A DNA stretch of 52,326 nucleotides from a virus (taxonomy: Duplodnaviria > Caudoviricetes). Both the position numbers and the translations under genes were made by a program. The stretch's first letter is position 1. Every line of letters begins with the position of its first letter. Positions 2,934 through 28,086 of the stretch are shown here, one piece after another. A model generated the notes under the pieces. That model was not told where the DNA came from and searched no databases. It saw nothing but the letters and a program-made list of their open reading frames with translations. The stretch covers positions 1 through 52,326 of IMG/VR virus record IMGVR_UViG_3300042465_004150; one strand, 5' to 3'.

Positions 2934-3127
2934 TCGACGTATCCGAAGACTACAAACTGTGGATTACCGTCAAACCCACGCCCAGGTTTGACCAGTACCA
3001 CTTGAAGATTGAGTCCCAGTGGCTCGGTGCAAAGGACCCCACTGGCATGCAAGTGGCCTACTCGGTCACCCTGCCAAGGCACCAGCTCAAGGCAATCGCT
3101 GCCGCCATCTTGGAGGGCGTCGCATGA
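2930..3127 (+). CDS. hypothetical protein
   Basis: ATGA overlap, GGAG RBS. Confidence 0.7.
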   Translation: MIDVSEDYKLWITVKPTPRFDQYHLKIESQWLGAKDPTGMQVAYSVTLPRHQLKAIAAAILEGVA

Positions 3128-3549
3128 ACCTCATAACACTTGATGAGTTTTTGTACGACCTACCTTGGTCAGACAACGTGCGCGGCAAGCTACGCGTAAT
3201 GGCCGATCGAGATGAGTTGCGCTACCTCGTAGCCTGGGACAACGCTGGCAAACTGTCGTGCTCGGCATTCACTGAAAAGCCAAACGACTGGCCTGACAAC
3301 GCCATGGCCATCTGGTCCAAGCGCGGGGATGACCCGCGCCCCGGTGCCCAAGCTCAGACAATTTCAAAAACCATGCAAGCCGTTGCGCTTGTGCTCGACG
3401 AAGGATTAACAGTCTATGCAGCATCAAAACAAATCGGAATCAACGAATCAGCAGTGCACCGCGCCCTCAAGAGGCGTGACGGCAAAGACATCTGTCCTTG
3501 CTGCAACCAGGTGATCAGAGGTCAATCTGCATCGCCAGCTTCTGCATGA
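3124..3549 (+). CDS. HTH DNA-binding protein with C-terminal Cys cluster
   Basis: ATG 3124; AVALVLDEGLTVYAASKQIGINESAVHRALKR is HTH-like; ends ICPCCNQV. Confidence 0.7.
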   Translation: MNLITLDEFLYDLPWSDNVRGKLRVMADRDELRYLVAWDNAGKLSCSAFTEKPNDWPDNAMAIWSKRGDDPRPGAQAQTISKTMQAVALVLDEGLTVYAASKQIGINESAVHRALKRRDGKDICPCCNQVIRGQSASPASA

Positions 3550-3970
3550 TCTTGCGTGCCACGTCACGCTCTAAGCCCATGATCACTTCGACCAGGGCCC
3601 TTTCCCTTTCGCCTTCTAGAGGCTTTCGCCCCGTGCCCTGACATTCAACGCAAATGTTGTCTGTCAGGACCGGGGCATTTTTCATGGTCTCGAACCCTCG
3701 TCCATGACAACGATTACACACGTCGTTGGCCAGGTGCCTTAGCACCGACATCACCACATGCACATCGTGTCCCCTGTCCACCAGGCTGACCGCGATCTTG
3801 GCAGCTTCGCCCTGATCGCCTGCATACCTCCACCTCCATATCGACAGCCCAAGTGGGTTGCTCTGCCCAGCCATCCCACAAGCCCTGATGATGTCAATGT
3901 CGCCCATCTCGCCTGCTGGCTTTTCGCCAAGGTTTTTGCTGGTCTGTGCGCTTGAGATTTTTTCTTTCAT
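3515..3970 (-). CDS. antitermination protein Q-like zinc-finger regulator
   Basis: CNRCHGRG...CVECQGTG zinc finger; last gene of the helicase/VRR-NUC operon. Confidence 0.6.
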   Translation of the reverse strand: MKEKISSAQTSKNLGEKPAGEMGDIDIIRACGMAGQSNPLGLSIWRWRYAGDQGEAAKIAVSLVDRGHDVHVVMSVLRHLANDVCNRCHGRGFETMKNAPVLTDNICVECQGTGRKPLEGERERALVEVIMGLERDVARKIMQKLAMQIDL

Positions 3971-5298
3971 GGCATCCTCTTTTCGTTTACTGCGTCAATC
4001 AAAGCCTGCTGCATGTCGCCCTTGTTCTCAAGCACACGCATGATCCGTTCATCGATCGTGTTTAGTGCGACCAAGTGGTGCACCATGACCTGGTTCTTTT
4101 GTCCTGGCCTGTGAAGCCTTGCATTGGCCTGCTCGTACAAGTCCAAGCTGAAAGGCAAACCAAACCACACAGCCACGTTGCCACCCACCTGGAGACCGTC
4201 CACGCCGTGGCCCCCGCTGGCCGGGTGCATAAGCATCAAATTGATCTGGCCTGCCTGCCAGGCCGCCAGGCTGGTCTCGCCATCGAATTTGACCGCGTCC
4301 GCAAACCTGGCCTTGATCCTGTCCATGTCATGCACGTATGCGGTAAAGCAAAGCACCGGCTCGCCCTGCTCAACGATCTCGGCCAACGCGTCCAGCTTGG
4401 CGTCGTGGATGTAGTGCACGTCCTTTGTGTCGTCGTATACAGCGCCGTTGGCCATCTGCCCCAGCTTGCCCGCAAGCACTGCCGGGTTGACAGCCATGAC
4501 CGAACCGCTGACCTGGGTCGCCTCCATCTCGTCATACCTCTTGCGGTCGAATGTCACATGCACGATGTTGTCGATCCTCTGTGGCAGCTGTGTGTCGCTG
4601 TCGATGCTGACCATCACGTCCTTGACCAAACCCTGTATCTCATCCCTTGCACCCGGTCTCAACTTCCAGCTGTAAATGGTCTGGCCGTTTCGTTTGTCCG
4701 GTAAATACCACCGGTCCCGATACTTGGTGATCCCCGTACCCAAACGCCGACCCCCATCCAGAATGCTTATTTGGGCCCACAGGTCAAGCAAATCGCCGTT
4801 AGGGTCTGGGGTGCCAGTCAGGATATAAAGCCTCTCCACGGCCTTCCTGACGCGTCTCAGGGCCTGCCACGACTTGCTCGCTCGGTCCTTGAACCCCACG
4901 TTCTCATCGATTACCACGCACTCGAACGGCCAATCCTCTTTGCTTTCGTCAACCAGGTCGACAAGCCAGACAAAATTCTCACGATTGATAACATACACAT
5001 CCGCGTCCTGGGTCAGGCCCTTGATCCTTTGTTCCTTGGTCCCCAGGACCTTGGACACGCGAAGGTTGGCCAGGTGGTCCCACTTGGCAGCCTCCGTGTG
5101 CCACACCAGCTCGGCCACCCTCTTGGGTGCCACGACCAGGGTCTTGCTGACCTCGAACCTATCAAACATCAAGTCATGGACCGTGGTCAGGGTGGCCGCT
5201 GTCTTTCCCCCGCCCATGCGAAGGGCCACCAGCTGGTAAGGGTTTTCCAGCATTCTCTTGTGTGTCGCATCCTGCGCCGGTCTAGGCAAATAAATCAT
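3967..5298 (-). CDS. SNF2-family helicase
   Basis: MGGGKT (Walker A), VVIDE, LTGTP, HPASGGHGVDGLQ, QANARLHRPGQ; probable start ATG 5298. Confidence 0.92.
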   Translation of the reverse strand: MIYLPRPAQDATHKRMLENPYQLVALRMGGGKTAATLTTVHDLMFDRFEVSKTLVVAPKRVAELVWHTEAAKWDHLANLRVSKVLGTKEQRIKGLTQDADVYVINRENFVWLVDLVDESKEDWPFECVVIDENVGFKDRASKSWQALRRVRKAVERLYILTGTPDPNGDLLDLWAQISILDGGRRLGTGITKYRDRWYLPDKRNGQTIYSWKLRPGARDEIQGLVKDVMVSIDSDTQLPQRIDNIVHVTFDRKRYDEMEATQVSGSVMAVNPAVLAGKLGQMANGAVYDDTKDVHYIHDAKLDALAEIVEQGEPVLCFTAYVHDMDRIKARFADAVKFDGETSLAAWQAGQINLMLMHPASGGHGVDGLQVGGNVAVWFGLPFSLDLYEQANARLHRPGQKNQVMVHHLVALNTIDERIMRVLENKGDMQQALIDAVNEKRMP

Positions 5299-16564: not shown

Positions 16565-16776
16565 TTGACGACCCTGAAGAAGAAGCCTGGAAAGAGATCG
16601 AGGCCAAGCAGTCTCAGACCAATCTCTTTGTCATACGCCGGGAGCCTACCATTGCCGTGATTAGCATCGGACCCGACGGCCGTTTATTTTGGCACGGCCG
16701 TGAAGTCGAAACCGATGACGATTTTCGCGGGGCCATGATGGACCTCGCGGCCGCGTTTCGCAACACCAGGATTTAG
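16561..16776 (+). CDS. hypothetical protein
   Basis: GGAGAGG RBS, MIDDPEEEAW...; last + strand gene, converges on the late region. Confidence 0.65.
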   Translation: MIDDPEEEAWKEIEAKQSQTNLFVIRREPTIAVISIGPDGRLFWHGREVETDDDFRGAMMDLAAAFRNTRI

Positions 16777-19700
16777 TCCTTCTCTTCGCCGGTGACGGTG
16801 AGGCCCTGGCGCAGATTGCTGCGCTTTTCGCGCAGCTTTTCTTTCTCGCGTTCGGACGCCTCGCTGGTGATTGCGCCCTTGGACTCCAGGCGTGTGAGCT
16901 TTCTGATCTCAAGCTCAAGCTCGCGGATCATGGCCTTGGTCTGAGACGCTTGAATCTTCTCTGACGTGTCCAGGTCGATCGGGCGAGCCTTGATACCCAC
17001 GGTCTGCATAGCTGCATACTTGGGCTGGATGGGCAAGCCATCTGCACCGATGCCGGTGTACTCGGCCAGGCCCACGTTGACAGGCTGGCCGGTGCTGTTG
17101 GCAACCACGTTCATGGCACGCTCGAAGTGGGTGTTGCCCACGGCGATCGCAGGGCTGGCCTGCTTCCACATCCAAGCCGCACGTTTCTTTGCAGCCTCTT
17201 CGGCGGTGTCGCTCTTGAGGACGATGTCCTTGTTGCGGAACGTGTCCTTGTTGAACAGCATTGCTGCGGCCGTTGTGAGCACCGGGTTGTTGGGCGTGAG
17301 CGGAGCCAACAGCGGGATGCCGCCAGCGTTGTTGTGTGCGTCGAACAGATCGCCGCCTGGGAAGACGCGGCTCACGTCCAAGAACACCGGCAGGTTGGTC
17401 AGGTCGTCTGTCCCCAAGCGGATCGCCTTCTCGGTGCCCAATGACAGGCTTGCGCCCTTCATCCATTCGGGCAAGGATTTGCGCTCTTGCTTTTCCATGT
17501 CTTTGACACGGGCACGGAATTCGTCATCGGTCACGTACCGGCGAACGATGGTCCACCAGTCCTCATCATCGCCACCGCCCAGGCTGGCAGCGATCGAGTA
17601 CATGATCGCGTTGACCGTGTACAAGGCAACCGCTGGAGCAGCGTATCGGAACGGGTGCTCCAGTGCTGTGTTGGCCAAGGCCGGAATGGCTTTGAACGTG
17701 TAGCTAAAGAACGGCAAACCCACCGGCATGTCGCGGATGATGCGCGCGGTCTTTGGCAGATCGTCGTATGTGAAGATGTACTTCTGTGCATAGTCGACCG
17801 AGTCGTCCACACCCAGGCCACGGCCGCGAGCGTCGCGGTAGATCAGGTATCGGAAGAATTGATCTTCTGCATCGTATGCCACGCCCATGGGCTTGCGCAA
17901 GAACAAGGACAAAGCATTCCACACCCGGTCCACGTTTTTGCCAATCGGTGACTCGGTCATCTGGGCCATGGCTCGCAGCTCTTCAGGCATCGCCTTGATC
18001 AGCTCGGAACGGTTGAACGTACCACCAAACAAGCCAGCATCTTTGGCTTCGTCGACCATCGCGTCACCCTTGACCAGGTCTTTGATGGAGCCGATGTACT
18101 TGTGCGCGTCCCAGTAAGACACGCCAGCAAAGTGGGCCATCGTCAAGTTCGACAGCACGTTGTTCGCGTGGGCCACTGGGTTGAGAACGGTCTTGCCCTC
18201 TTTCCACATCGACAGACCTTTGAGGTACATCTTGGTCAAGTCGTTTTGCATGGACGAGTCAAACGCGCTGAGTTGGTCAAGCACTTCTTTGGGCACCCAC
18301 TTACCGGCGATCTTGCCGTAGCGGGGGACCATGGTGTCTTCGATCTTGGTGTCAGGCACCTTGACATAGCCAGGCTGCTCTGTGCGGCTGGCGTAATTGG
18401 TGGCCAGGCTTTCGTACAAGCGGCCCAGTGCAATGTCGCGCTGGCTCTTGTTGTAGCCCATGACAAAGCGGAACATGGAGTCGCGAATCTCGCCCATGTC
18501 GTCGCGTTCGTCGCGGGTGTAGTCGCGCCACACTGTGATGGTGTCGTTGACTGCCGGGTCGAAGTCCGGGTCGCGCACTTCCCAGCCTTCGCTTTCCCAA
18601 TCAGCCAGGTCATCGACCGGCACGGTCTCAAACATGCCGCGAGCTTTTAGGCTGCTGCCGCCAATGCCTTGCATGGTCTTCTTGCGGCCGAGCAAATTCT
18701 TGACCGCTTTCATCCAGGCTTTGGTTTCGTCTCCGAGCTTTTGTTCGTAGAAGCGCGGCAGGTACTTGCCGTCCCAGCGGCCAGCGGCCTCGGGTGAAAG
18801 CATGCCCAGGCGCACCAGCTCTGCCGTCTGTTCGGACATGATCGACTGCATCGATGCTGCCAGGTCAAGCACATGCTTGGGCGGTTTGGACCCGCGCTTG
18901 AGTTCGCCCTCGATCACATCGCTGATCATCTGGCGCTCTTGTTCAGGCAGGTCTTTGAGATTCTTGGCCACGTCAACCGTGAGGTTCTGGGCCTTCTCGA
19001 TTTCCATCTTCATCTTGCGCAAGGCGCGCGACAGCTCAGGGCTGACAGGCTTCAAGTTGATGGCACCGAGCACGGTGTTGGCCACGTCTGCTGCGTATCG
19101 ATAGGCTTTCGCACCTGCGCCGAATCGGAAGCGGCCCAGCTCATCGCGGCTGAATATCCAGCCCTCGGTCTCTTTGCCAACCGGCTGACGCTGGGCCAAG
19201 CGGATGTCCGGGTTGTTCTCATCGAATGCGCCGGTGTTGTCAATGGCAGATTTGATCTGAGTGGGTTTGAAAACCACGTACTCGGAAGGATTTACAGAGT
19301 CGCCGTCAAAGATGACCCCGTCATGCTCTGGCGTAAGCACCTCTAAAGCGCGGCGCTTGGCATCGCCAAACGACAGGCCTTGCCTGCGGTATTTCTTAAT
19401 CGCGGCGGTGGTATTGAGTGGATTCTCGATTCTTAAATACGCTTGAGTAACGTCACCCCGTGGAGTTCGGATGCTTGCACCAAACGCCCTGGTGTAGCCC
19501 ATTGCTGCTTGCGCGTCGCCGGTAAAGTAAGTGCCAGCCAGATCGCCCTTGGCGCTACGGGTGGTAACGCGGGAAGTATCAAAAACCGTCACGCCTTTGG
19601 ACAAACTCCCGTGATACACCACCAACGGTTCGCCTTGGTCATCCACCACCTTGCTGTCGCCAAACCAGCGTTTGAATTCTGGTGTCTCGGTCTGACGTTT

Positions 19701-22064
19701 CTGGAACATCATCTCGGCTGGGTTCTCTTCGCGCCACTGTGTAGCGGCTTCGATAAACTTGTCGTAATCTTTGTCGACGAATTCGTCGATGGTTTTATAC
19801 CCGGCGTCCTCGGCCTTTTGCTGGAGGAACACCTCTTGGCGCGCAGCGTCGTCCGCAATCTGGACGATCTCTTCGCGCTTGCTAAAGGCTAAAGGGGCAC
19901 CAGTAATATCGACGTCCTCGCTGTATCTAGGGTTCTTGGCCAGGACCAGGGGGCCGATCTGGATCACCTCATCTGCTTCAACGACCGGCTGCATGCTGTC
20001 GCGGTTGTAGAAGTAACTGTGGCGGAATGGGTCCATGCCCACCTGCACCCAGTTTGGATCGTTCAGCGCCGCGTCAGCGCGGGCCTTGGCGTCTGCTTTG
20101 CTGACGGGTGACCACTTGCCAAGCATGGTGGCAATCGTGCCCTTGGACGTGCCCTGGGCGATCTTGGTTGCGGCCCTTTGGTTCATGCCAAAGGTCACGT
20201 CTGTCAATGCAGCCACGGACTCATAGCCCAATCTGGTGCCAGCGTCGTATGCCGCTTGCACTTCCCGGTTGGTGGACTTGGGTGTGTGCACAGTCACCAC
20301 CCAGGTGTCGTGCAATTGATAGGACGGAATGTCCAAGCGCAGTTGCGCCCAATCGCCACGCTTCAAGTTCATGGACGGAACACCGTACTGGGCCGCCTTC
20401 TCTGGGCTTTGCCCCTTGCCTGTTGCCAGGGCATAGCGTGCGTCTTTGGGCGTCGTGATGGCTGGCACCTTGGCGTAGGGGTAGACCGGGCGCAGCTCGT
20501 CGACCATGCGGTTGTATTCGGTGCGTGTGATCTTGCCGTCTTGCAAGTCGGTGACGGCTTGCTGAAGCTGTTCGGTGCGCTTGAACCGGTCGGCATCGGT
20601 GTTGGCCACGCGGCTGGCTTCGGCGTTCTTCTGCTCTCGTCGACTGAAGCTAGGTGCAATTACTTTACGGGCTACGATACCCAGGCCAACGTCTCGCTCA
20701 GTCTCATAACGCACAGGGTTTTCCAGGGGGTACAAATATTTGACGCCCCCTGGAGCGATGTCAAACTTGGAGTCTTTGGGCACCAGGCTTTGGTCGCGGT
20801 ATTGGTCAAACTGTTTTTGTGTGGTGACTTTGATAGGCTCGCCAATCGTCACCGCGCCAATTGCTTTGGCCGGACCGTCTCCGGTACGCACAATGGCGAC
20901 CCGTTTTCCAACATAGGGGCGGAGCGAATCCGACGCCCTGGTTTCAAGTGTCTTTTCTCCGTCAACAATTTTGTCAGCATATCGGTTTTCTCCGTCCTGA
21001 TTGACGTTGATACCAATGCTTTCGGGTATACTTGGAGATATGGCCTTCGACTTCAAATCCCTGCCACCCGGAACCCGGTTCTTTGACTGGTCAGATATTC
21101 CTGTGACCGTCTCTTCCGGCTGGCGTTCGGCCACGGCTTGGACACCAGGCCCCTCGCCGCGCAACCCCTCCGATGTGCGAGAAAACGCAAGCGAAATTTC
21201 TGAAGCTGCCTTCGAGACTTTGTTCAACGAGGTCTCAAGCCTGCGCAAGAAGAACCCATACCCCTCAGAATAAATCTTCATCTGAAGGTCGACCATCTTG
21301 GTCTTCAAAGCCCCTGGCGGCATCTCACGTTCAAACGCGTAAATCTCGTGGCCCAAGTTTTTGGCGGCCAGCATCTCTGGCGTGTTGATCTGAATCTCAG
21401 CGATAGTGCCGTCAGGCAAAACCACGTTTGTCAGTATGTCTTGGTACCCAGTCTCCAGGGGTTTGCCAGGTAGGACTTCCCCGTCCGGCGTATCGATGTC
21501 TTCGGCAAGCCGGTTCTTGATTCGATCGAATTTGTAGACCTGGCCGATCTTGTTGATCACTTGCTGGGCTTCTTCAATGCTGCTGACAGCTATGGTCCCG
21601 CGAAGCAGGTCACGCATTGTGTCGGCCAACCAGTCTTGCTCTTTGACCAATTTGGTGACGGCGCGGTATGGCTTTTTGATGCCAGGCTTTTTGGCGTACC
21701 CGTTGACTTCCTCAGCGATCCGGTCAAGCTCAGCATCAAAAGATGCTTTGTTGCGCCTTGCAGCCTCGAACATGGGCGCGAGCATTTCCCCGCCCATGGC
21801 GCGTTCCTCTGGCGTGAGCGGGTCGACCGGCTCGGGCTTCTTGTATTTGGCAATCGCGGCCTTGGCCTCGGCGATTGTTTCGGGATCGAGGATGTCTTCA
21901 GGCGTCAGGCTGGGCAAACGCTCACGCATGCTTAGCGCCACCTTGGGGCTGGGCAACAGGTGTTGCAAGCCGCCGTCAACTAGGTACGCTTTAAACGCGG
22001 CTTGGCCTTCGATAACGCGCTCATTGCCGTCCGCGTCGGTGAACCGATACGTGCAGTTGGCCAT
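16773..22064 (-). CDS. large polyvalent (probably ejected) protein: RelA/SpoT-like synthetase, ASCH, unknown domain, ART-PolyVal, C-terminal LPD38-like region
   Basis: KKPYRAVTK, DLLRGTI, GYQD, AEIQINT, GHEIY (~21260-21745); YADKIVDGEKTLETR ASCH (~20660-21020); FKRWFGDSKVVD..PLVVYHGS..YFT..HDGVI..EYVVF..QIKS (~19200-19695). Confidence 0.85.
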   Translation of the reverse strand: MANCTYRFTDADGNERVIEGQAAFKAYLVDGGLQHLLPSPKVALSMRERLPSLTPEDILDPETIAEAKAAIAKYKKPEPVDPLTPEERAMGGEMLAPMFEAARRNKASFDAELDRIAEEVNGYAKKPGIKKPYRAVTKLVKEQDWLADTMRDLLRGTIAVSSIEEAQQVINKIGQVYKFDRIKNRLAEDIDTPDGEVLPGKPLETGYQDILTNVVLPDGTIAEIQINTPEMLAAKNLGHEIYAFEREMPPGALKTKMVDLQMKIYSEGYGFFLRRLETSLNKVSKAASEISLAFSRTSEGLRGEGPGVQAVAERQPEETVTGISDQSKNRVPGGRDLKSKAISPSIPESIGINVNQDGENRYADKIVDGEKTLETRASDSLRPYVGKRVAIVRTGDGPAKAIGAVTIGEPIKVTTQKQFDQYRDQSLVPKDSKFDIAPGGVKYLYPLENPVRYETERDVGLGIVARKVIAPSFSRREQKNAEASRVANTDADRFKRTEQLQQAVTDLQDGKITRTEYNRMVDELRPVYPYAKVPAITTPKDARYALATGKGQSPEKAAQYGVPSMNLKRGDWAQLRLDIPSYQLHDTWVVTVHTPKSTNREVQAAYDAGTRLGYESVAALTDVTFGMNQRAATKIAQGTSKGTIATMLGKWSPVSKADAKARADAALNDPNWVQVGMDPFRHSYFYNRDSMQPVVEADEVIQIGPLVLAKNPRYSEDVDITGAPLAFSKREEIVQIADDAARQEVFLQQKAEDAGYKTIDEFVDKDYDKFIEAATQWREENPAEMMFQKRQTETPEFKRWFGDSKVVDDQGEPLVVYHGSLSKGVTVFDTSRVTTRSAKGDLAGTYFTGDAQAAMGYTRAFGASIRTPRGDVTQAYLRIENPLNTTAAIKKYRRQGLSFGDAKRRALEVLTPEHDGVIFDGDSVNPSEYVVFKPTQIKSAIDNTGAFDENNPDIRLAQRQPVGKETEGWIFSRDELGRFRFGAGAKAYRYAADVANTVLGAINLKPVSPELSRALRKMKMEIEKAQNLTVDVAKNLKDLPEQERQMISDVIEGELKRGSKPPKHVLDLAASMQSIMSEQTAELVRLGMLSPEAAGRWDGKYLPRFYEQKLGDETKAWMKAVKNLLGRKKTMQGIGGSSLKARGMFETVPVDDLADWESEGWEVRDPDFDPAVNDTITVWRDYTRDERDDMGEIRDSMFRFVMGYNKSQRDIALGRLYESLATNYASRTEQPGYVKVPDTKIEDTMVPRYGKIAGKWVPKEVLDQLSAFDSSMQNDLTKMYLKGLSMWKEGKTVLNPVAHANNVLSNLTMAHFAGVSYWDAHKYIGSIKDLVKGDAMVDEAKDAGLFGGTFNRSELIKAMPEELRAMAQMTESPIGKNVDRVWNALSLFLRKPMGVAYDAEDQFFRYLIYRDARGRGLGVDDSVDYAQKYIFTYDDLPKTARIIRDMPVGLPFFSYTFKAIPALANTALEHPFRYAAPAVALYTVNAIMYSIAASLGGGDDEDWWTIVRRYVTDDEFRARVKDMEKQERKSLPEWMKGASLSLGTEKAIRLGTDDLTNLPVFLDVSRVFPGGDLFDAHNNAGGIPLLAPLTPNNPVLTTAAAMLFNKDTFRNKDIVLKSDTAEEAAKKRAAWMWKQASPAIAVGNTHFERAMNVVANSTGQPVNVGLAEYTGIGADGLPIQPKYAAMQTVGIKARPIDLDTSEKIQASQTKAMIRELELEIRKLTRLESKGAITSEASEREKEKLREKRSNLRQGLTVTGEEKD
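21040..21273 (+). CDS. nested antisense 77-aa ORF, candidate antitoxin for the RelA-like domain
   Basis: GGAG and TATACT just before ATG; MAFDFKSLPPGTRFFDWSDIPV...ASEISEAAFETLF is globular-looking while the host frame here reads like a shadow. Confidence 0.6.
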   Translation: MAFDFKSLPPGTRFFDWSDIPVTVSSGWRSATAWTPGPSPRNPSDVRENASEISEAAFETLFNEVSSLRKKNPYPSE

Positions 22065-22068
22065 GTGA

Positions 22069-22560
22069 TTAACCGCCTAATTCTTGATCGATCAAAAGCA
22101 TGCCCGCTTTGTCGCCATCCATCAGCTGGATGCGAGACAACAAGTCGCCGTACTCGCCGACACTGGTGCGTTGGAATTCCAAAAACTGCAATAGGAATTG
22201 CTGAACAACGGGGTCCTCGCTGGTCTGGCCGTACCACTTCTTGTAGTCGTTGTACAACTCCAGCTCGGTCTCGTACCCGGTCTCGATCGCATCGCTCAAG
22301 CTCTTGATCGGGTCGTTCATGGCCTCGATCATCGGGACCTTGGCCACGGTGCCCACGTCGTTTTGGAATTCAACGTGCAGCTGGTAATGCACCAGCTCGT
22401 CGGCGCTTTCTTTCAAAAAGAATTTGGTTGCGCCGAAATAACCAAGGCGTTGCAGCTCGTTGGCGACGTGCTTGTAGAGATTTGACGCATAGAGTTCTGA
22501 ATGAACGGCGTCGTCCAGCATGTCTTTGCACTCTTGGGAGATGATCATTTTGGGCAACAT
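22069..22560 (-). CDS. ferritin-like protein
   Basis: ELYASNLY, GATKFF..ESADELVH, YETE, QFLLQFLEFQ match the four-helix ferritin pattern. Confidence 0.85.
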   Translation of the reverse strand: MLPKMIISQECKDMLDDAVHSELYASNLYKHVANELQRLGYFGATKFFLKESADELVHYQLHVEFQNDVGTVAKVPMIEAMNDPIKSLSDAIETGYETELELYNDYKKWYGQTSEDPVVQQFLLQFLEFQRTSVGEYGDLLSRIQLMDGDKAGMLLIDQELGG

Positions 22561-22569
22561 GGCGAATCC

Positions 22570-25500
22570 TTATTTGCAGTTAATCTTAACCAGGCCAGAG
22601 TCATCCAGCTCTGACAGAATGTCGAGCCAATTATCCTGGATGTATTTGATTTGAGGGCCGTCTGGCCGTGCGGTGTATGCAACCTCGGCCTTGGTCTTTG
22701 CCAGGCCCCGTTTGTCCAGGGCCTGGAATATGTCTTCGAGAGACTGGCCTACTACTTCGTCGGCTCGGACTCGGTAAGTTCGTTGCTCGATAAAAGTTTG
22801 CCGGTCTGCTCCGCCAAGCGGGCCGCTTGGGCTGCTCGGCTGGCCAGCCTGCTTATTTGCTCCCGCGACCGACTTGCCAGCCACTTGTCGTGCTGGTCCT
22901 GGTCCAGATTTGGCTGCTGCGCTGATTCGTTTTCCATCAAAACCTTCTTTCGTGAGGAGCGATTTTGCCGCACCTGCGTAGTCTTGGCTAGTGACTCGCA
23001 GCTTTACGCCCAACTTTTTGTAAAGCTCTTGTTCTGGATACCAGATTAAAGCCTGCAAAGCTGCGGGCGGTACGCGTTTGCCGGTCTCTGCTTCGACCTT
23101 GTCCACCATCTGGCGGACCACATCTCTCAGAAGTTGGCGCTCGCCACCGCTTTTGGGGGCGTCTTTTGGCTTCTCGGCAGACTTGATGATTGCACCAGCC
23201 GCGCCAACCAGGGCGGTCTTCTTGCGAGCGCCGGAGTCAAACGCGGCACGTTCCTTGATGAATTGGCGGTTGTGCAGGCTGTTAACCTGTCGCGCCAAAG
23301 CAACGGCACCCGCGTCGGTCTTCATCGCTTCGTCGACTATGGCCTTGTCAAACTGGTCAGCGTACAAGCCCACGGATGCTGGCCCAGTCTCGGCCAGGGC
23401 AGCGCGCAGCTTGGCCACTTGCTTGGGGAACAGGACCGGGTCAAACGCTGGCAGCGTACCGGCCAGGCGGCCGACGGTGCGCATGAACCACATGTCCATG
23501 GTGACCGGTTCAAAGTTGCCGGTGAGGTTCGAGTAAAAGCCAAAGCCGATCTTGGGTCCAAAGATCGCAGACCCCAGCATCTTCTCGTCCATCGATTCGC
23601 CGCCGATCGGAAAGCCCATGGTCTCCAGGTCGCGCTTGGTGAATTCGGTTTGCAAGAATCTGCGCAACAGGTCAGGACCCATCTCGGCCAACACGTCGTT
23701 GGCCAAAGCAAAGTTGTTCCCCATCGCTGGCGCGGATTTGCCGGTGCCCACCTCTGGGAATTTGCTTACGCCCTGCGCATTTACCGAGGCCCTGTAAGCC
23801 TCGTACTGCTTGGACGCATAGCGCAAGTTGTCCTCGACGTTCATCGTCTGGGACGATATGGCCACGGCCATCAAAAACGCATTGCGTGCGGCTGGGTCGG
23901 TGTTCAGCTCTGGGTATTTGACCGCCATGATCCGCAGCGTTTTTGCCACGGTCTCGTCGTACCACTCGACCGCATTGCCTGCGCTGCGGATTGCAGCAAC
24001 AGCTTCGGCCGACAACAGTTTGGCCAGGACCTCGCGGTCTTCCGGCTTCTTGATGTCGAGGATGGGCAAACCAGATTCAGCGCGCCTTGCGTCCAGCCAC
24101 TGGACAACCTCTGGCACGCCCCCGATTCGAGGGGCCTGGAATGTCTGGTCCTTGGTCAGGCCGGTCATCATCGGCAAGGCCGATGCGTTGTACTCAGCAT
24201 CTGACATCTTGAGGCTCTTGGCCACGTCTTGGTAAACACCAAAGTCTTTGGGCACTGGCGGACCAACGAACGGGGCTTGTTGCTTCTTGGCAAAGCGCAC
24301 GTCGCTGCCGATCCGCTCCAGCTCGGTGTTGGCTGCCTCGGCCTGATCGGCCGGGATTTCCAAGTTGCCCATGCGAACCTGAGCGCCAGGGATTTTGGTC
24401 ACGTCGATTGCGTTTGCTTCGCGTGACAGCAAGCCCTTGGTCAGCTTGGTAGGCGCGGCAGCTTCAGGTGCGGCCGCCGAGGGAACCTGGCCAAGCGCGC
24501 GCACAGGCACGGCCTTGTGCTTCATGCCCAGCAGCACGACGGCTGACTGGTTGTTTCCAAACGGCGCAATGTAGCCGTCGAAGCCCGCGTTGATTACCGC
24601 TGACTCGAACGCGTTGGCGTCCGCTTGCGGCTTGATCAGTCGCGTTTCGGGGTCGTAGATGTTTTGGAGGTTGACTTCGTGGGCGATTCCACCGACTCCG
24701 CTTTCGGGGCGGATGCCTGCCCCCTTGTCAACATAGAAGTAAATCCGGTTTTTGAGCCTCGGATCAGGGCTGCTGTCCAAGCGATTGCGTTCTGCACCTT
24801 TGAGACCACGGCCATAATATGCTCCACTTAAAACTTGACGGGGGGCCGTTGAGTAATGTCGGCCGATAACGGAGACTGCGCCTTGGCGGGCTGTTCCGTA
24901 GCTAGGGGCCGGACCGCCCCCACCTTCCTCAGATAGTTGTCCAATTGCGCCTGCAACGCTTGGTTGGATTTCACTTCTTGCAATGCCATCGATTCGTTGT
25001 CCATTTACTGCTCCCAGTGCGCCCTTGTTGTACGCCACCAAGGCGTCACGGGCGACCATCTTAGCGCGATTCAAATCGCGAATGTACTTGTCGACCTTGG
25101 CCGATTCTTTTCGCCCCTGGTCCTTTGACCCGCGCAAAGTTTGCAGCAGGTTGTCGATGATGCCAACCCACTTACTGACAAAGCCCTTGAACCCTTGCGG
25201 ATCAGCCTTGGCCACGTCGGCCCAGAATGCCTTGTCAGTTGCTCGGTTGCCCAAGAAGTCGGCGGTCATCTCCGACTTCAAGTTGTCGCTGGTCAAAAGC
25301 TGCTGCACCCGCTGCTCGCGCGCAGCTGGGTCGGCAATTTTGATCAGCTCATCGCGGTGCAAGAAGTTCTCGACATAGGCGCGCTTGCCCTCGTCGGTCA
25401 TGTCATCGAAAACGCTGTCGATGCTGGCCGTGAATTTCTGGGCCGGTGTGTCGGTCAGGCCAGCTGAAGTCTCGGCTGCTGCGATCTGTTCGACCGTGTG

Positions 25501-28086
25501 CTTGAATTCATGCAGCCCAGTGCGCAAGACGTTGACATCTCCAGCCGTATTGACAAACGCGGTCCCGCCAATTGCGACCCCGTTGATGGACATGGGACTG
25601 GGGTCGGTAAACGCGACAAGACGTCCACCAAACTGGCTGTTCAAAGCACTGGCGATCTCGTTGACCGCAGCCTCCTGCGCGGGCGCGGGAGCGTTGAGCT
25701 GGGGCGCTTCTACACCATTGGAAGAAGCCCATCTGTCGAGAGTTGTTTGTGCAGCTGCTCTCGCTCTGTTGGCGTCAGGGAGTCCTGCCACTGTCGGAGC
25801 TGCGGCGTCAGACACTGCCTGTGTTTCAGGGATGGAGACGAACCCGCCTGCAACAGGCGCGGCACCTGGGGCGGCCGCTTGGGCAGCGGGCTTGGGGGTA
25901 AAAGTAACTGAGCCATCTTGGTTCTCCACCTGATCAAACTGCTGGGACAAAGTGCGCCGGTCACCCAAACGCAACTTGCCAAGCTCCTCGGGAGTGTAAG
26001 TCCTGCTTTCGATAGGAGCCCCTACAACGGGCTGAGCGGCTTGGTCAGGGGTAGCTAAGGGCGCGCCCGCGATCGGGGCTTGCTGGGCCGTTTGCTCAGC
26101 CTGGCGGGCCGTTATCTCGATGGCAGCACTGCGCCTGGTGATGGCTGGCACGGTTTCGTCACCGGCAATGGTTGTCAGCTGGTCGTCAGTAAGGTTGGCA
26201 GCAGGTTCGCCCTGGATGCGCTGGGGGCGCGGGGCGTTCAGGCGGAGTTTGTCCAGGCCGAATTGCTGCTCCACCTGGGCGTTGACCGGCGGCAGATCGA
26301 TACCTGGGATCGGCTCAACGCGGCCAGGGATTGGGGCCAACAGATCGCCTGTCAGGGTTGGCTCGACGCGGCCAGGCACCGGCGGCAGCTCGCCTGTCAA
26401 GGTTGGCTCGATGCGCGGCAGCGGCGTCATGGCGGTGCCTGGGACCAGAAGCTCATCTACTGAGCCTGCCAGGTTTTCGGCAGCGGCCACTGCGTCAGCC
26501 GCAGTGCTGGCTTGGCCAAGGTCTTGCTGAGCCTGGGCGATCTTGGCTGTCTGGGTGGGGCTGATGATGTTGTCGTCGTAGGACTGGACATCGAGAGCGC
26601 GCCGGGCAAGGGTGTCGCCAACAATGTCAAACGGTGCGGCTGGGCGGTTTAAAGCGTCCCGCACTTGCTGGCCAACAGCAACGGCTGAGAACGGGGCCGA
26701 GGTAACGGCGGCCGTGGCCATCGCTTCAGGCACGCCCTCTAAGAGCTTTTGTTTTTTGTTAACCGTTTGCGCGATGATGTTAGCGCCCAGCTGGGTGCCG
26801 CCCTCTTCAAACTGTTCACCGATAAGTTCTTTGCCAAACAGCTTTGCCGCACCCCTGGGAGTGGCCACGCTGGTCAAGGCTTTGCCTGCGCCCCTGGCGA
26901 CTATGGCTGCTTCGGCACCCATGAAACCAAGAACGCCCAGAGGGGCAGTGATGATTGCGGCCAAGCGCGCTTTGGCTGTGGCAATCTCGTCGATCGCTTC
27001 CGCAGGCGTCTTGCCTTCTGCAATCAGTTTTTGGTAGTCTGGGTTTTCTTGCCAAACGCTAGGCGGCGTTTGCTTAGGGTCGATCAGCTTCTCGTAGACG
27101 TTGCCAGCAGCATCGCCAGCGGTCATCACCGTGGCGGCTGTCAAACCACCAGCGGTTGCGCCAGCGGCCCGAGCACCCGCCTGAAGCGCGCCGCCACTGA
27201 TGGCTTCGCTGAGCGCAACGGCTGGGCTGACTCTGGTGGCCACGCCAACGCCGCCACCGGCAATGGCAGTGCCGACCTTAGCCAAGCCCATAATGCCCAA
27301 GAAGTTGGGCACCTGTTTGGCTGCTTCAGAAAGGCCAAGCGCGGGGTTGGTCACCAGGCTTTCAATTGTTGAAAGGTACTTGCCAAAGAAGCCCTCTTCG
27401 CTTTGAACGCGTTCGCGCATCTGATCGCGCTGGGCTTTCATCACATCTGATTCTTGCGCTTGCAATTCTTTTTGCGTCTCGCGCAAAGTCTGGGCCAGCG
27501 AGCTGCCAGGAGCGACGATGTTGGTCGGAAGTTGGACCAGGCTTACTGCGCCTTGGGCCAAGGGTCCTGCCAATTGGTCAATTGTCCATTCGCCAAATGT
27601 GCGGAATTCATCGGCCTTGGCGTCTCGCGCAGCCCGCACGTTGACCGGGTTGTTTGCGCGCTCAATCAGATCAGCAAAAGAAGGGGCCTTTTTTTCGGCC
27701 ATTCCGGCTGCCGTCTTTCGGACCGTCTTGTCTTCAGTGGTCAGGATGCCGCTGCGCAAAAGGTCAGCTTTTGCTGCGGTCCCTTGGCTGATTGGTCCTG
27801 CGCCATACGACAACCGACGATCGATTTCGGATTGCTTTTCTTGCGGTGTAAACGCCACGGTTTCCAGCACGCTCTTAGATTCCGGTTTGAGGAAATCGCC
27901 AACGCGCTGGATGAGGCCCCGATTATCGATAGCCGGTGGATTTACAAAACCTCGACCGCCCCCTGCCTCAGAAGGGCGAACGCCCTCCGGCAATTCACGC
28001 TTCCCCGTGTCTAACTCGCCCGTGAAAAGGGTATAGCCGGGGCTTTCTTCGTCGTCCAGCTGGCCGTTAAAAAGTTGATAGGCCAT
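22570..28086 (-). CDS. large polyvalent (probably ejected) protein: N-terminal helical region, HExxH metallopeptidase, ART-like domain, HhH-glycosylase-like domain
   Basis: GLHEFKH...EMTAD (~25030-25680); RHYS..RIYFY..E..GFDGY (~24500-24880); WYD..AISSQ..GPKIG.GFYSNL..VTMDMW..LQALIW (~22970-24130). Confidence 0.8.
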   Translation of the reverse strand: MAYQLFNGQLDDEESPGYTLFTGELDTGKRELPEGVRPSEAGGGRGFVNPPAIDNRGLIQRVGDFLKPESKSVLETVAFTPQEKQSEIDRRLSYGAGPISQGTAAKADLLRSGILTTEDKTVRKTAAGMAEKKAPSFADLIERANNPVNVRAARDAKADEFRTFGEWTIDQLAGPLAQGAVSLVQLPTNIVAPGSSLAQTLRETQKELQAQESDVMKAQRDQMRERVQSEEGFFGKYLSTIESLVTNPALGLSEAAKQVPNFLGIMGLAKVGTAIAGGGVGVATRVSPAVALSEAISGGALQAGARAAGATAGGLTAATVMTAGDAAGNVYEKLIDPKQTPPSVWQENPDYQKLIAEGKTPAEAIDEIATAKARLAAIITAPLGVLGFMGAEAAIVARGAGKALTSVATPRGAAKLFGKELIGEQFEEGGTQLGANIIAQTVNKKQKLLEGVPEAMATAAVTSAPFSAVAVGQQVRDALNRPAAPFDIVGDTLARRALDVQSYDDNIISPTQTAKIAQAQQDLGQASTAADAVAAAENLAGSVDELLVPGTAMTPLPRIEPTLTGELPPVPGRVEPTLTGDLLAPIPGRVEPIPGIDLPPVNAQVEQQFGLDKLRLNAPRPQRIQGEPAANLTDDQLTTIAGDETVPAITRRSAAIEITARQAEQTAQQAPIAGAPLATPDQAAQPVVGAPIESRTYTPEELGKLRLGDRRTLSQQFDQVENQDGSVTFTPKPAAQAAAPGAAPVAGGFVSIPETQAVSDAAAPTVAGLPDANRARAAAQTTLDRWASSNGVEAPQLNAPAPAQEAAVNEIASALNSQFGGRLVAFTDPSPMSINGVAIGGTAFVNTAGDVNVLRTGLHEFKHTVEQIAAAETSAGLTDTPAQKFTASIDSVFDDMTDEGKRAYVENFLHRDELIKIADPAAREQRVQQLLTSDNLKSEMTADFLGNRATDKAFWADVAKADPQGFKGFVSKWVGIIDNLLQTLRGSKDQGRKESAKVDKYIRDLNRAKMVARDALVAYNKGALGAVNGQRIDGIARSEIQPSVAGAIGQLSEEGGGGPAPSYGTARQGAVSVIGRHYSTAPRQVLSGAYYGRGLKGAERNRLDSSPDPRLKNRIYFYVDKGAGIRPESGVGGIAHEVNLQNIYDPETRLIKPQADANAFESAVINAGFDGYIAPFGNNQSAVVLLGMKHKAVPVRALGQVPSAAAPEAAAPTKLTKGLLSREANAIDVTKIPGAQVRMGNLEIPADQAEAANTELERIGSDVRFAKKQQAPFVGPPVPKDFGVYQDVAKSLKMSDAEYNASALPMMTGLTKDQTFQAPRIGGVPEVVQWLDARRAESGLPILDIKKPEDREVLAKLLSAEAVAAIRSAGNAVEWYDETVAKTLRIMAVKYPELNTDPAARNAFLMAVAISSQTMNVEDNLRYASKQYEAYRASVNAQGVSKFPEVGTGKSAPAMGNNFALANDVLAEMGPDLLRRFLQTEFTKRDLETMGFPIGGESMDEKMLGSAIFGPKIGFGFYSNLTGNFEPVTMDMWFMRTVGRLAGTLPAFDPVLFPKQVAKLRAALAETGPASVGLYADQFDKAIVDEAMKTDAGAVALARQVNSLHNRQFIKERAAFDSGARKKTALVGAAGAIIKSAEKPKDAPKSGGERQLLRDVVRQMVDKVEAETGKRVPPAALQALIWYPEQELYKKLGVKLRVTSQDYAGAAKSLLTKEGFDGKRISAAAKSGPGPARQVAGKSVAGANKQAGQPSSPSGPLGGADRQTFIEQRTYRVRADEVVGQSLEDIFQALDKRGLAKTKAEVAYTARPDGPQIKYIQDNWLDILSELDDSGLVKINCK
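22752..22937 (-). CDS. nested +1-frame 61-aa ORF (MENESAQQPNLDQDQHDKWLASRSREQISRL...)
   Basis: AAAGAAGG-ttttg-ATG; starts right after the HhH-like domain; amphipathic helical sequence. Confidence 0.45.
   Translation of the reverse strand: MENESAQQPNLDQDQHDKWLASRSREQISRLASRAAQAARLAEQTGKLLSSNELTESEPTK
24828..25004 (-). CDS. nested +1-frame 58-aa ORF (MDNESMALQEVKSNQALQAQLDNYLRKVGAV...)
   Basis: GGGAG-cagtaa-ATG; spans the linker into the ART-like domain; below the ORF-track cutoff. Confidence 0.5.
   Translation of the reverse strand: MDNESMALQEVKSNQALQAQLDNYLRKVGAVRPLATEQPAKAQSPLSADITQRPPVKF

Follow-up and report, generated by a model that had tools for sequence, protein, structure and literature searches.

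The 52,326 bp virus record IMGVR_UViG_3300042465_004150, which we call the window (the whole stretch of DNA that was analyzed), carries on its − strand a gene for a polyvalent protein of 1763 amino acids (aa). Opposite the linker that follows a predicted toxic alarmone-synthetase domain of this protein, an open reading frame (ORF) of 77 codons plus stop runs on the + strand (21040-21273; ATG at 21040, stop at 21271-21273). This nested ORF is very probably a real gene. Our overall reading, to which we assign a probability of about 0.65, is that of a real embedded antisense gene whose product is a candidate Tis1-like protein and the candidate cognate immunity protein of the Tas1-like domain encoded on the other strand; the immunity role rests on the coupling of the small gene to the toxin domain, on analogy with known pairs and on a weak fold match. 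An independently expressed, overprinted gene that neutralizes the adjacent synthetase had been the core idea of an initial annotation of this DNA, and it is supported by selection, start signals, homologues, coupling and the weak match to Tis1. The reality of long embedded antisense genes in bacteria and phages is the subject of a long-running dispute, for which the evidence in this case is unusually clean: non-overlapping homologues, frame-specific selection with an internal control, conserved start signals and an obvious functional partner.

The nested reading frame, its selection and its start signals

The nested ORF lies opposite host residues ~264-342, between the RelA_SpoT match (residues 129-239) and the ASCH match (residues 360-407) of the host protein, and its third codon positions coincide with those of the host frame. 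The sequence thus contains the 77-aa + strand ORF that the initial annotation had placed in the RelA–ASCH linker of the 1763-aa gene; two additional in-frame starts precede its ATG (TTG 21001 and ATG 21016). We rejected the length of the ORF as evidence: The same host gene holds 11 antisense ORFs of at least 90 aa (allowing ATG, GTG and TTG starts) and five ATG-started ORFs of at least 77 aa, so that a length of 77 aa is at chance level. The longest antisense ORF of the host gene (302 aa, 20178-21086, + strand), which runs across the start of the nested gene in a different frame, was likewise rejected as a further gene: Of the 17 homologues covering it, 10 show it interrupted, which marks it as a chance ORF.

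A search of viral contigs that used host residues 1-480 as the query yielded 25 loci, and further scans added others; the resulting homologue set comprises 25 distinct sequences spanning residues 120-347, window included. In all 22 close homologues, the ATG is kept and the antisense frame is open across the first 62 codons. Frequent stops in this frame, named in the initial annotation among the observations that would speak against the gene, were hence not encountered; stops occur solely in the C-terminal tail of five close homologues, yielding proteins of 70-73 aa versus 75-77 aa, while the same antisense frame contains 3-6 stops per 143 codons in the RelA region. The ORF is accordingly located wholly within a longer opposite-strand gene with both frames open in relatives, which is what defines an embedded gene.

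Because the coinciding third positions make most changes hit both frames, we counted single-frame changes, using a FastTree tree of 23 sequences and Fitch reconstruction and scaling the counts by opportunity and by the doubly synonymous rate. Two loci (L018 and L023) were excluded from these counts as too divergent, and L002, which is near-identical to the window, was retained in the tree and excluded from the count of variable columns. The overlap comprises 75 codon columns; in the RelA-domain control region, 68 of the 143 codon columns were usable because one sequence (L031) is partial. Changes that alter the antisense frame alone are depleted in the overlap (20 observed, 65.2 expected; ratio 0.31, 95% bootstrap confidence interval (CI) 0.15-0.53) and not in the control (60 observed, 50.3 expected; ratio 1.19, CI 0.83-1.69). 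The corresponding ratio for sense-only changes is 0.44 in the overlap (95% CI 0.15-0.77) and 0.28 in the control. Consequently, both frames are under purifying selection in the overlap, which is the outcome of the codon-level check that the initial annotation had recommended and which does not quite fit its view that the host frame is a passive shadow of the antisense protein here: The sense frame is constrained as well. Sorted by host codon position, variable columns make up fractions of.41/.52/.93 in the overlap as opposed to.47/.31/.93 in the control; the former is the normal pattern for the antisense frame. Since third positions vary in 93% of the columns, the DNA as such is not frozen.

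Within the overlap, the invariant host stretch F-S-R-T-S-E-G-L-R-G (~21150-21180, residues ~295-304) lies opposite the most conserved motif of the small-protein family, P-R-N-P-S-D-V-R. A candidate cleavage site suggested in the initial annotation, the junction motif F/L-S/A-x-R/K, is likewise matched by this host stretch, which may thus be subject to a dual constraint.

The start region of the small gene is conserved, too. A −10-like hexamer TATACT (21027-21032, + strand) is located seven bases before the ATG, as the initial annotation had pointed out, and reads TATAAT in most relatives. Among the 22 close relatives, 15 have the arrangement TATAAT (TATACT in one), 6 nucleotides (nt), GGAGG, 5 nt, ATG, and these elements are kept even beside an unrelated neighboring module. 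Two doubly synonymous sites within the hexamer are invariant in 22/22 sequences, compared with 93% of third-position columns being variable in the ORF. On the host strand, the hexamer uses the rare isoleucine codon ATA, which accounts for 6 of the 87 isoleucine codons of the host gene; three of these six lie in or just before the nested ORF. The GGAG reported in the initial annotation is indeed present in the window (21034-21037, + strand), where it probably represents what is left of the GGAGG seen in relatives, but at two bases from the ATG it is too near to serve as a Shine–Dalgarno site. In the seven distant nested lineages described below, GGAGG or GGAG is found 6-9 nt upstream of the ATG, often after a TAnAnT hexamer. 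Across 13 loci, 14 of the 878 ATGs on the strand of the small gene have GGAGG at positions −14 to −5, and 13 of these 14 are the start of the small gene.

The nested gene moreover belongs to a mobile unit. Host residues 347/348 (21021-21026, − strand) mark the boundary between the toxin module, which includes the nested gene and its −10 box, and the subsequent ASCH module. Four loci (L019-L022) have the N-terminal leader of 45 residues fused directly to residue 348, without the toxin module, and eight loci (L013, L016, L017, L027, L031, L034, L036 and L038) are similar to the host protein up to ~residue 347 and continue with other modules. Because the former skip the module and the latter diverge after it, we regard host residues ~49-347 as one mobile module, within which the antisense ORF is wholly contained. 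A second sharp module boundary of the polyvalent gene is located at host residues ~48/49.

The toxin domain and its coupling to a small-protein family

The sense-strand partner of the nested gene is encoded at 21270-21767 (− strand; host residues ~100-265). Its sequence predicts a Tas1/Apk-like nucleotide pyrophosphokinase domain of the RelA-SpoT homologue (RSH) superfamily, of the toxic small alarmone synthetase (toxSAS) type, and thus a (p)ppApp-synthetase-type toxin domain. A profile of ten homologues searched against the PDB has its best match in Tas1 (6ox6_A, E 1.7e-7, covering Tas1 residues 256-374), followed by RelA at 0.0086, and the stretch E-I-Q-(I/V)-N-(T/S)-P-E-M is common to the domain and Tas1. 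The Pfam family RelA_SpoT (PF04607) matches the isolated domain with 28.3 bits at a cut-off of 27 and the whole host protein with 22.8 bits, below this cut-off; it matches 9 of the 10 homologues. By these comparisons, the domain is closer to Tas1 than to housekeeping RelA/SpoT.

The small gene adjoins this toxin domain in all sequences of the main lineage (23/23). This coupling extends to distant lineages, for which the toxin-domain alignment and, as further queries, two distant homologues were used in scans: Eight further toxin lineages with 30-57% toxin identity carry a family member, seven of them in nested and one in convergent arrangement. The nested ones (L075/L081, L082, L076/L077, L078, L079, L080 and L089) have host frames without a stop over 860-2165 codons, and each of them contains on the opposite strand, directly beyond the toxin domain and with the relative frame unchanged, an ORF of 70-80 aa. 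The ORF of L089 matches the first hidden Markov model (HMM) of the family directly (3e-8); the ORFs of the other nested lineages join the family via iterated profiles, with no other open frame there falling below 0.16. A first hhalign comparison of the L075 and L076 ORFs with the family profile was weak (E 0.048 and 0.0017). In the convergent lineage (L083-L088, 33% G+C), the toxin has a gene of its own (303 aa) and the family member, of 66-71 aa, is mostly intergenic, with a 49-nt 3′ overlap with the toxin gene (L088, 1060-2138); its match to the first family HMM is direct (1.7e-5). This lineage is an un-nested form of the toxin/small-gene pair, and its layout suggests that the nested form arose by read-through fusion. 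In all nine lineages, the small gene is found on the strand opposite to the toxin. Conversely, six loci with polyvalent genes lacking the toxin module yielded no family match in 554 open frames. Given that a toxic alarmone-synthetase domain accompanies it throughout these lineages, the small protein most likely serves as the antidote by which the phage's host cell is protected from the toxin.

The family itself extends beyond nested genes. A phmmer search against 1.84 billion representatives gave 13 matches, four of which are repeat-protein false positives; the remaining ones include proteins of 80-89 aa that start at the same methionine, and some longer proteins with the family domain at one end, and three of the remaining matches contain two diverged tandem copies. 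Non-overlapping members, the kind of standalone homologue that the initial annotation had suggested searching for, are found in L028, L052 and L088. In L028, a beta-proteobacterial contig, the family domain ends a 235-aa ORF with nothing but short ORFs on the opposite strand, and in L052, a 116-aa member is located beside a P4-type integrase. The neighborhood in L028 contains two adjacent genes (3088-3498 and 3551-4258) with a common N-terminal domain, of which the second alone has the C-terminal family domain. A gene for a calcineurin-like (NinI-like) phosphoesterase follows the family member in L028 (3088-5208); such a gene also follows the cluster of toxin, small ORF and hydrolase in Bordetella phage PHB04 (L091, 3052-4531).

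Other searches added little. A DNA-level search of a phage collection with window positions 20000-22064 gave no match, tblastn of the 77-aa protein against phages returned nothing but chance-level rows (E at least 2), tblastn of a relative (P0006) against plasmids found no match, and the ESM Atlas search gave no usable match for the small protein. In the family libraries, the lone hit was a sub-threshold VMAP-M15 match on another relative (P0005). When the family profiles were searched against all PDB sequences, the rows for uL4 ribosomal protein, picornavirus VP1 and pyruvate kinase were at chance level and were discarded.

The known Tis1-like proteins are described as very diverse and are compared structurally in the available part of PMC11782079. 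AlphaFold with the family alignment predicts a compact strand-plus-helix domain with a disordered C-terminal tail at a mean predicted local distance difference test (pLDDT) of 84.8 (85.8 with a wider alignment) and a predicted template modeling score (pTM) of 0.71. In four out of four structure searches, which are mutually non-independent and cover both models, the first-ranked match is 6ox6_B, the 76-aa Tis1 from the same crystal as Tas1; in VIA-align, it tops 48,161 representative chains. The size fits as well, with 77 aa in the window and 66-80 aa in relatives. A fold search of BFVD retrieved uncharacterized small phage proteins alone, the best four with E 0.055-0.1 and template modeling (TM) scores of 0.54-0.67. 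Because the structure scores are weak and the sequence profiles miss Tis1, we take the Tis1 fold as a suggestion of the models.

Competing explanations and a possible mechanism

Several observations weigh against an immunity protein that is active in the window. Searches of Pfam, PHROG and NCBIfam with the small protein and its relatives gave no family match. The 6ox6_B match is weak in Foldseek (E 0.47-0.48, TM 0.43-0.44) as well as in VIA-align (Z 3.6-3.7, root-mean-square deviation 5.5 over 60 residues); both are under the reliable level of the respective program, and a Z below 8 in VIA-align may mean merely a common arrangement. The remaining rows of the structure searches are SH3-like folds, and 6ox6_B is absent from the rows listed when the family profiles are run against all PDB sequences with an E limit of 10. 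Three HMMs detected no family member in L018 and L023, which have divergent RelA-like modules, nor could membership be detected for the 69-aa ORF that follows the toxin in PHB04. A toxin-domain match was found in neither of the two bacterial genomes with free-standing members (0/2), both of which are incomplete metagenome-assembled genomes. Finally, the subclade of the window (7 of the 22 sequences) is 9 nt shorter in the start region and has TATACT-7 nt-ATG without a properly spaced GGAGG, and no well-spaced −35 element precedes the nested ORF; the latter had already been remarked upon in the initial annotation, and a two-hexamer sigma-70 scan of 20500-21600 also found no + strand promoter. 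As an observation in its own right, L018 (28% identity in the RelA-like domain) and L023 keep an antisense frame of ~76 codons open opposite the linker after this domain, which could be due to chance or to an unrelated partner.

The strongest alternative is a gene that is real and translated but whose product is not an immunity protein: It could act as a helper in packaging or folding the polyvalent protein, as a regulator, or as an anti-defense factor that rides with the module. The missing sequence link to Tis1 and the weak fold match would be in line with this, as would the location of the free-standing members in integrase-linked islands of two bacterial genomes where the toxin domain was not found, and the fusion of some members to other domains or their tandem arrangement. 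We nonetheless deem it rather unlikely, because the gene strictly adjoins the toxin domain in all nine lineages, even where toxin identity falls to 30%, and is missing from loci without the toxin module, because Tas1-type toxins are always accompanied by small immunity genes, as far as the available portion of PMC10083569 describes them, and because Tis1 ranks first among the representative chains compared.

It is less probable still that the gene works in relatives and is decaying or silent in the phage of the window. Here, the 9-nt deletion has removed the GGAGG with its 5-nt spacer from the subclade of the window, and four members of this subclade end 7 codons early. The truncations, however, cost no more than the tail that is disordered in the model, and at ~67-75% host-protein identity, the subclade has preserved the ORF, its ATG and every residue conserved in the family. 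Moreover, leaderless mRNAs are characterized by a −10 box at just such a distance (seven bases) from the ATG, and the spacing TATACT-7 nt-ATG suggests such an mRNA for the window. That the antisense ORF is unexpressed and its openness a by-product of host-protein or DNA constraint, e.g., of a conserved recombination joint between modules, we consider highly improbable: Antisense ORFs are common in the host gene with its 57% G+C, the shared third positions let most changes strike both frames alike and the host frame is constrained in the overlap (0.44), but host-silent, antisense-altering changes are three-fold depleted in the overlap alone, third positions vary in 93% of columns, non-overlapping homologues exist, start codon, GGAGG and −10 box are conserved at doubly synonymous sites, and the fold model is confident.

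Returning to the immunity protein, we envisage the following mechanism. According to the part of PMC11782079 that was available, Tis1-like domains neutralize (pp)pApp-producing toxSAS by occluding the acceptor site. Like Tis1, the small protein would attach to the synthetase domain and obstruct the site of the acceptor nucleotide, whereby the producing cell would be kept alive while the giant protein is made; with an alternative timing, the injected toxin would be switched off once the incoming genome is expressed. The small gene has start signals of its own, namely the −10-like box and GGAGG in most relatives and a leaderless-like geometry in the window. The toxin itself may be made in order to be packaged, as the initial annotation supposed. 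As it resides within the DNA of the toxin module, toxin and antidote would stay linked during module shuffling.

From this linkage a wider scenario can be drawn, which we put forward tentatively and would not rate as probable. Overprinting would serve as a linkage device by which the module moves between phages as a self-contained toxin–immunity cassette. Host RNA polymerase might read the small gene from the −10 box soon after injection, so that the virion-delivered synthetase gives a short alarmone pulse and is then turned off, while a hydrolase clears the product. The free-standing copies in bacterial islands might be captured orphan immunity genes that blunt the phage weapon, and the same principle may hold for other enzymatic domains of polyvalent proteins.

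A candidate hydrolase is encoded in the window. The early or replication block contains a gene for a predicted small alarmone hydrolase of 176 aa with an HD_4 domain (1952-2482, + strand; PF13328 at 69 bits with a cut-off of 27.2, Pfam HD_4 4.3e-19), whose best PDB match is 7qoe_A (3.8e-35) and which also matches the (p)ppApp hydrolase 7smg_A (2.4e-4). It could possibly be a second, enzymatic safeguard beside the small protein. Together, hydrolase, synthetase domain and nested gene resemble the triad Apk2/BcTis1/Aph1.

The case bears on how a phage makes a giant protein rich in toxic enzymes without killing its factory too early. It also indicates where more antidotes may be sought, namely on the opposite strand of inter-domain linkers, where gene callers never report them. 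For the alarmone-toxin field, it adds an unnamed candidate family of immunity type as well as a concrete toxin–antidote pair that is testable in E. coli.

The virus record as a whole is ~94% complete, with 50-61% G+C, and its DNA was found in 20 DNA sequencing runs from freshwater and lake metagenomes, with no RNA run listed for it; the hosts of this phage lineage are probably Burkholderiales. The + strand up to ~16.5 kb contains replication genes (DUF932, HD_4 hydrolase, SNF2 helicase, primase and family A DNA polymerase), and the − strand constitutes a structural block with an SU10-type portal, a tail-fiber chaperone domain and two giant genes. The first of these is the host gene (16773-22064, − strand; ORF list, translation and Pfam). 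Its product is composed of an N-terminal leader, the RelA/SpoT-like toxin domain, ASCH-like, L5_gp82-like and ART-PolyVal parts and a long C-terminal part; on the whole protein, Pfam yields ART-PolyVal (5.3e-23), Phage_L5_gp82, ASCH and a weak RelA_SpoT match. The second giant gene (1838 aa, 22570-28086, − strand) is without a Pfam match at E ≤0.001. Between the two lies the ferritin-like gene that had been noted in the initial annotation (22069-22560, − strand; Pfam Ferritin 1.5e-14).

Comparison with known systems

In the literature searched, supplementary files excepted, we found no report that the immunity gene of an alarmone-synthetase toxin or of a polyvalent toxin is nested or antisense. 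The closest known systems are Tas1 (Apk1)–Tis1 of Pseudomonas aeruginosa and the phage system MuF-Apk2/BcTis1/Aph1 (PDB 6OX6; available parts of PMC10083569 and PMC11782079), with which the window shares the type of RSH toxin domain. Further shared features are a partner of ~76 aa encoded directly beside the toxin, with Tis1 as its first-ranked, albeit weak, structural match, a small alarmone hydrolase in the same phage genome and the fusion of the toxin to a virion protein. The layout differs: While the immunity gene of these systems is located downstream on the same strand, it is found here on the opposite strand, embedded or convergent, and while their toxin domain is C-terminal, it is internal to a multi-domain protein of 1763 aa here. 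In addition, no similarity between the small protein and Tis1 can be detected at the sequence level, and the hydrolase is encoded 19 kb away in the early block. The classical same-strand layout is seen in a cultured relative, PHB04, in which one strand encodes the portal, a 493-aa toxin-domain protein, the 69-aa ORF, a phosphohydrolase and a phosphatase.

The toxSAS-type toxin–antitoxin (TA) systems of type II, FaRel/ATfaRel and CapRel, have in common with the pair proposed here, as far as the accessible text of PMC11782079 describes them, that a small structured domain, in our case a candidate, checks a toxic alarmone-synthetase fold. They differ in that the genes in the window form neither a co-directional operon nor a fusion with a C-terminal antitoxin, and in that chromosomal TA loci of toxSAS contrast with a location in the structural module of a lytic-type phage. 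As regards the host protein, it belongs to the polyvalent proteins as described by Iyer et al. 2017, judged by the available part of PMC5512222: a giant, multi-domain, virion-associated protein with ART-PolyVal, RelA/SpoT and ASCH domains and with module shuffling. In that part of the paper, the terms "immunity protein" and "overlapping" occur 0 times and no self-protection gene is described, whereas the protein of the window has a candidate for one in a linker.

Embedded antisense genes have been reported for E. coli O157 and P. aeruginosa, where they are characterized, in the accessible parts of PMC9927249 and PMC8850804, as evolutionarily young and of unknown function. The nested gene shares with the cases described there the location of the ORF wholly inside an opposite-strand gene and purifying selection on the embedded frame. 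In contrast to them, it has non-overlapping family members, it is conserved across toxin divergence down to 30% identity, and its evident functional partner is encoded by the same gene in which it is embedded. It is therefore among the better-supported embedded antisense genes in a phage and, with its small protein as the candidate antidote, a new arrangement of a known kind of toxin–immunity pair.

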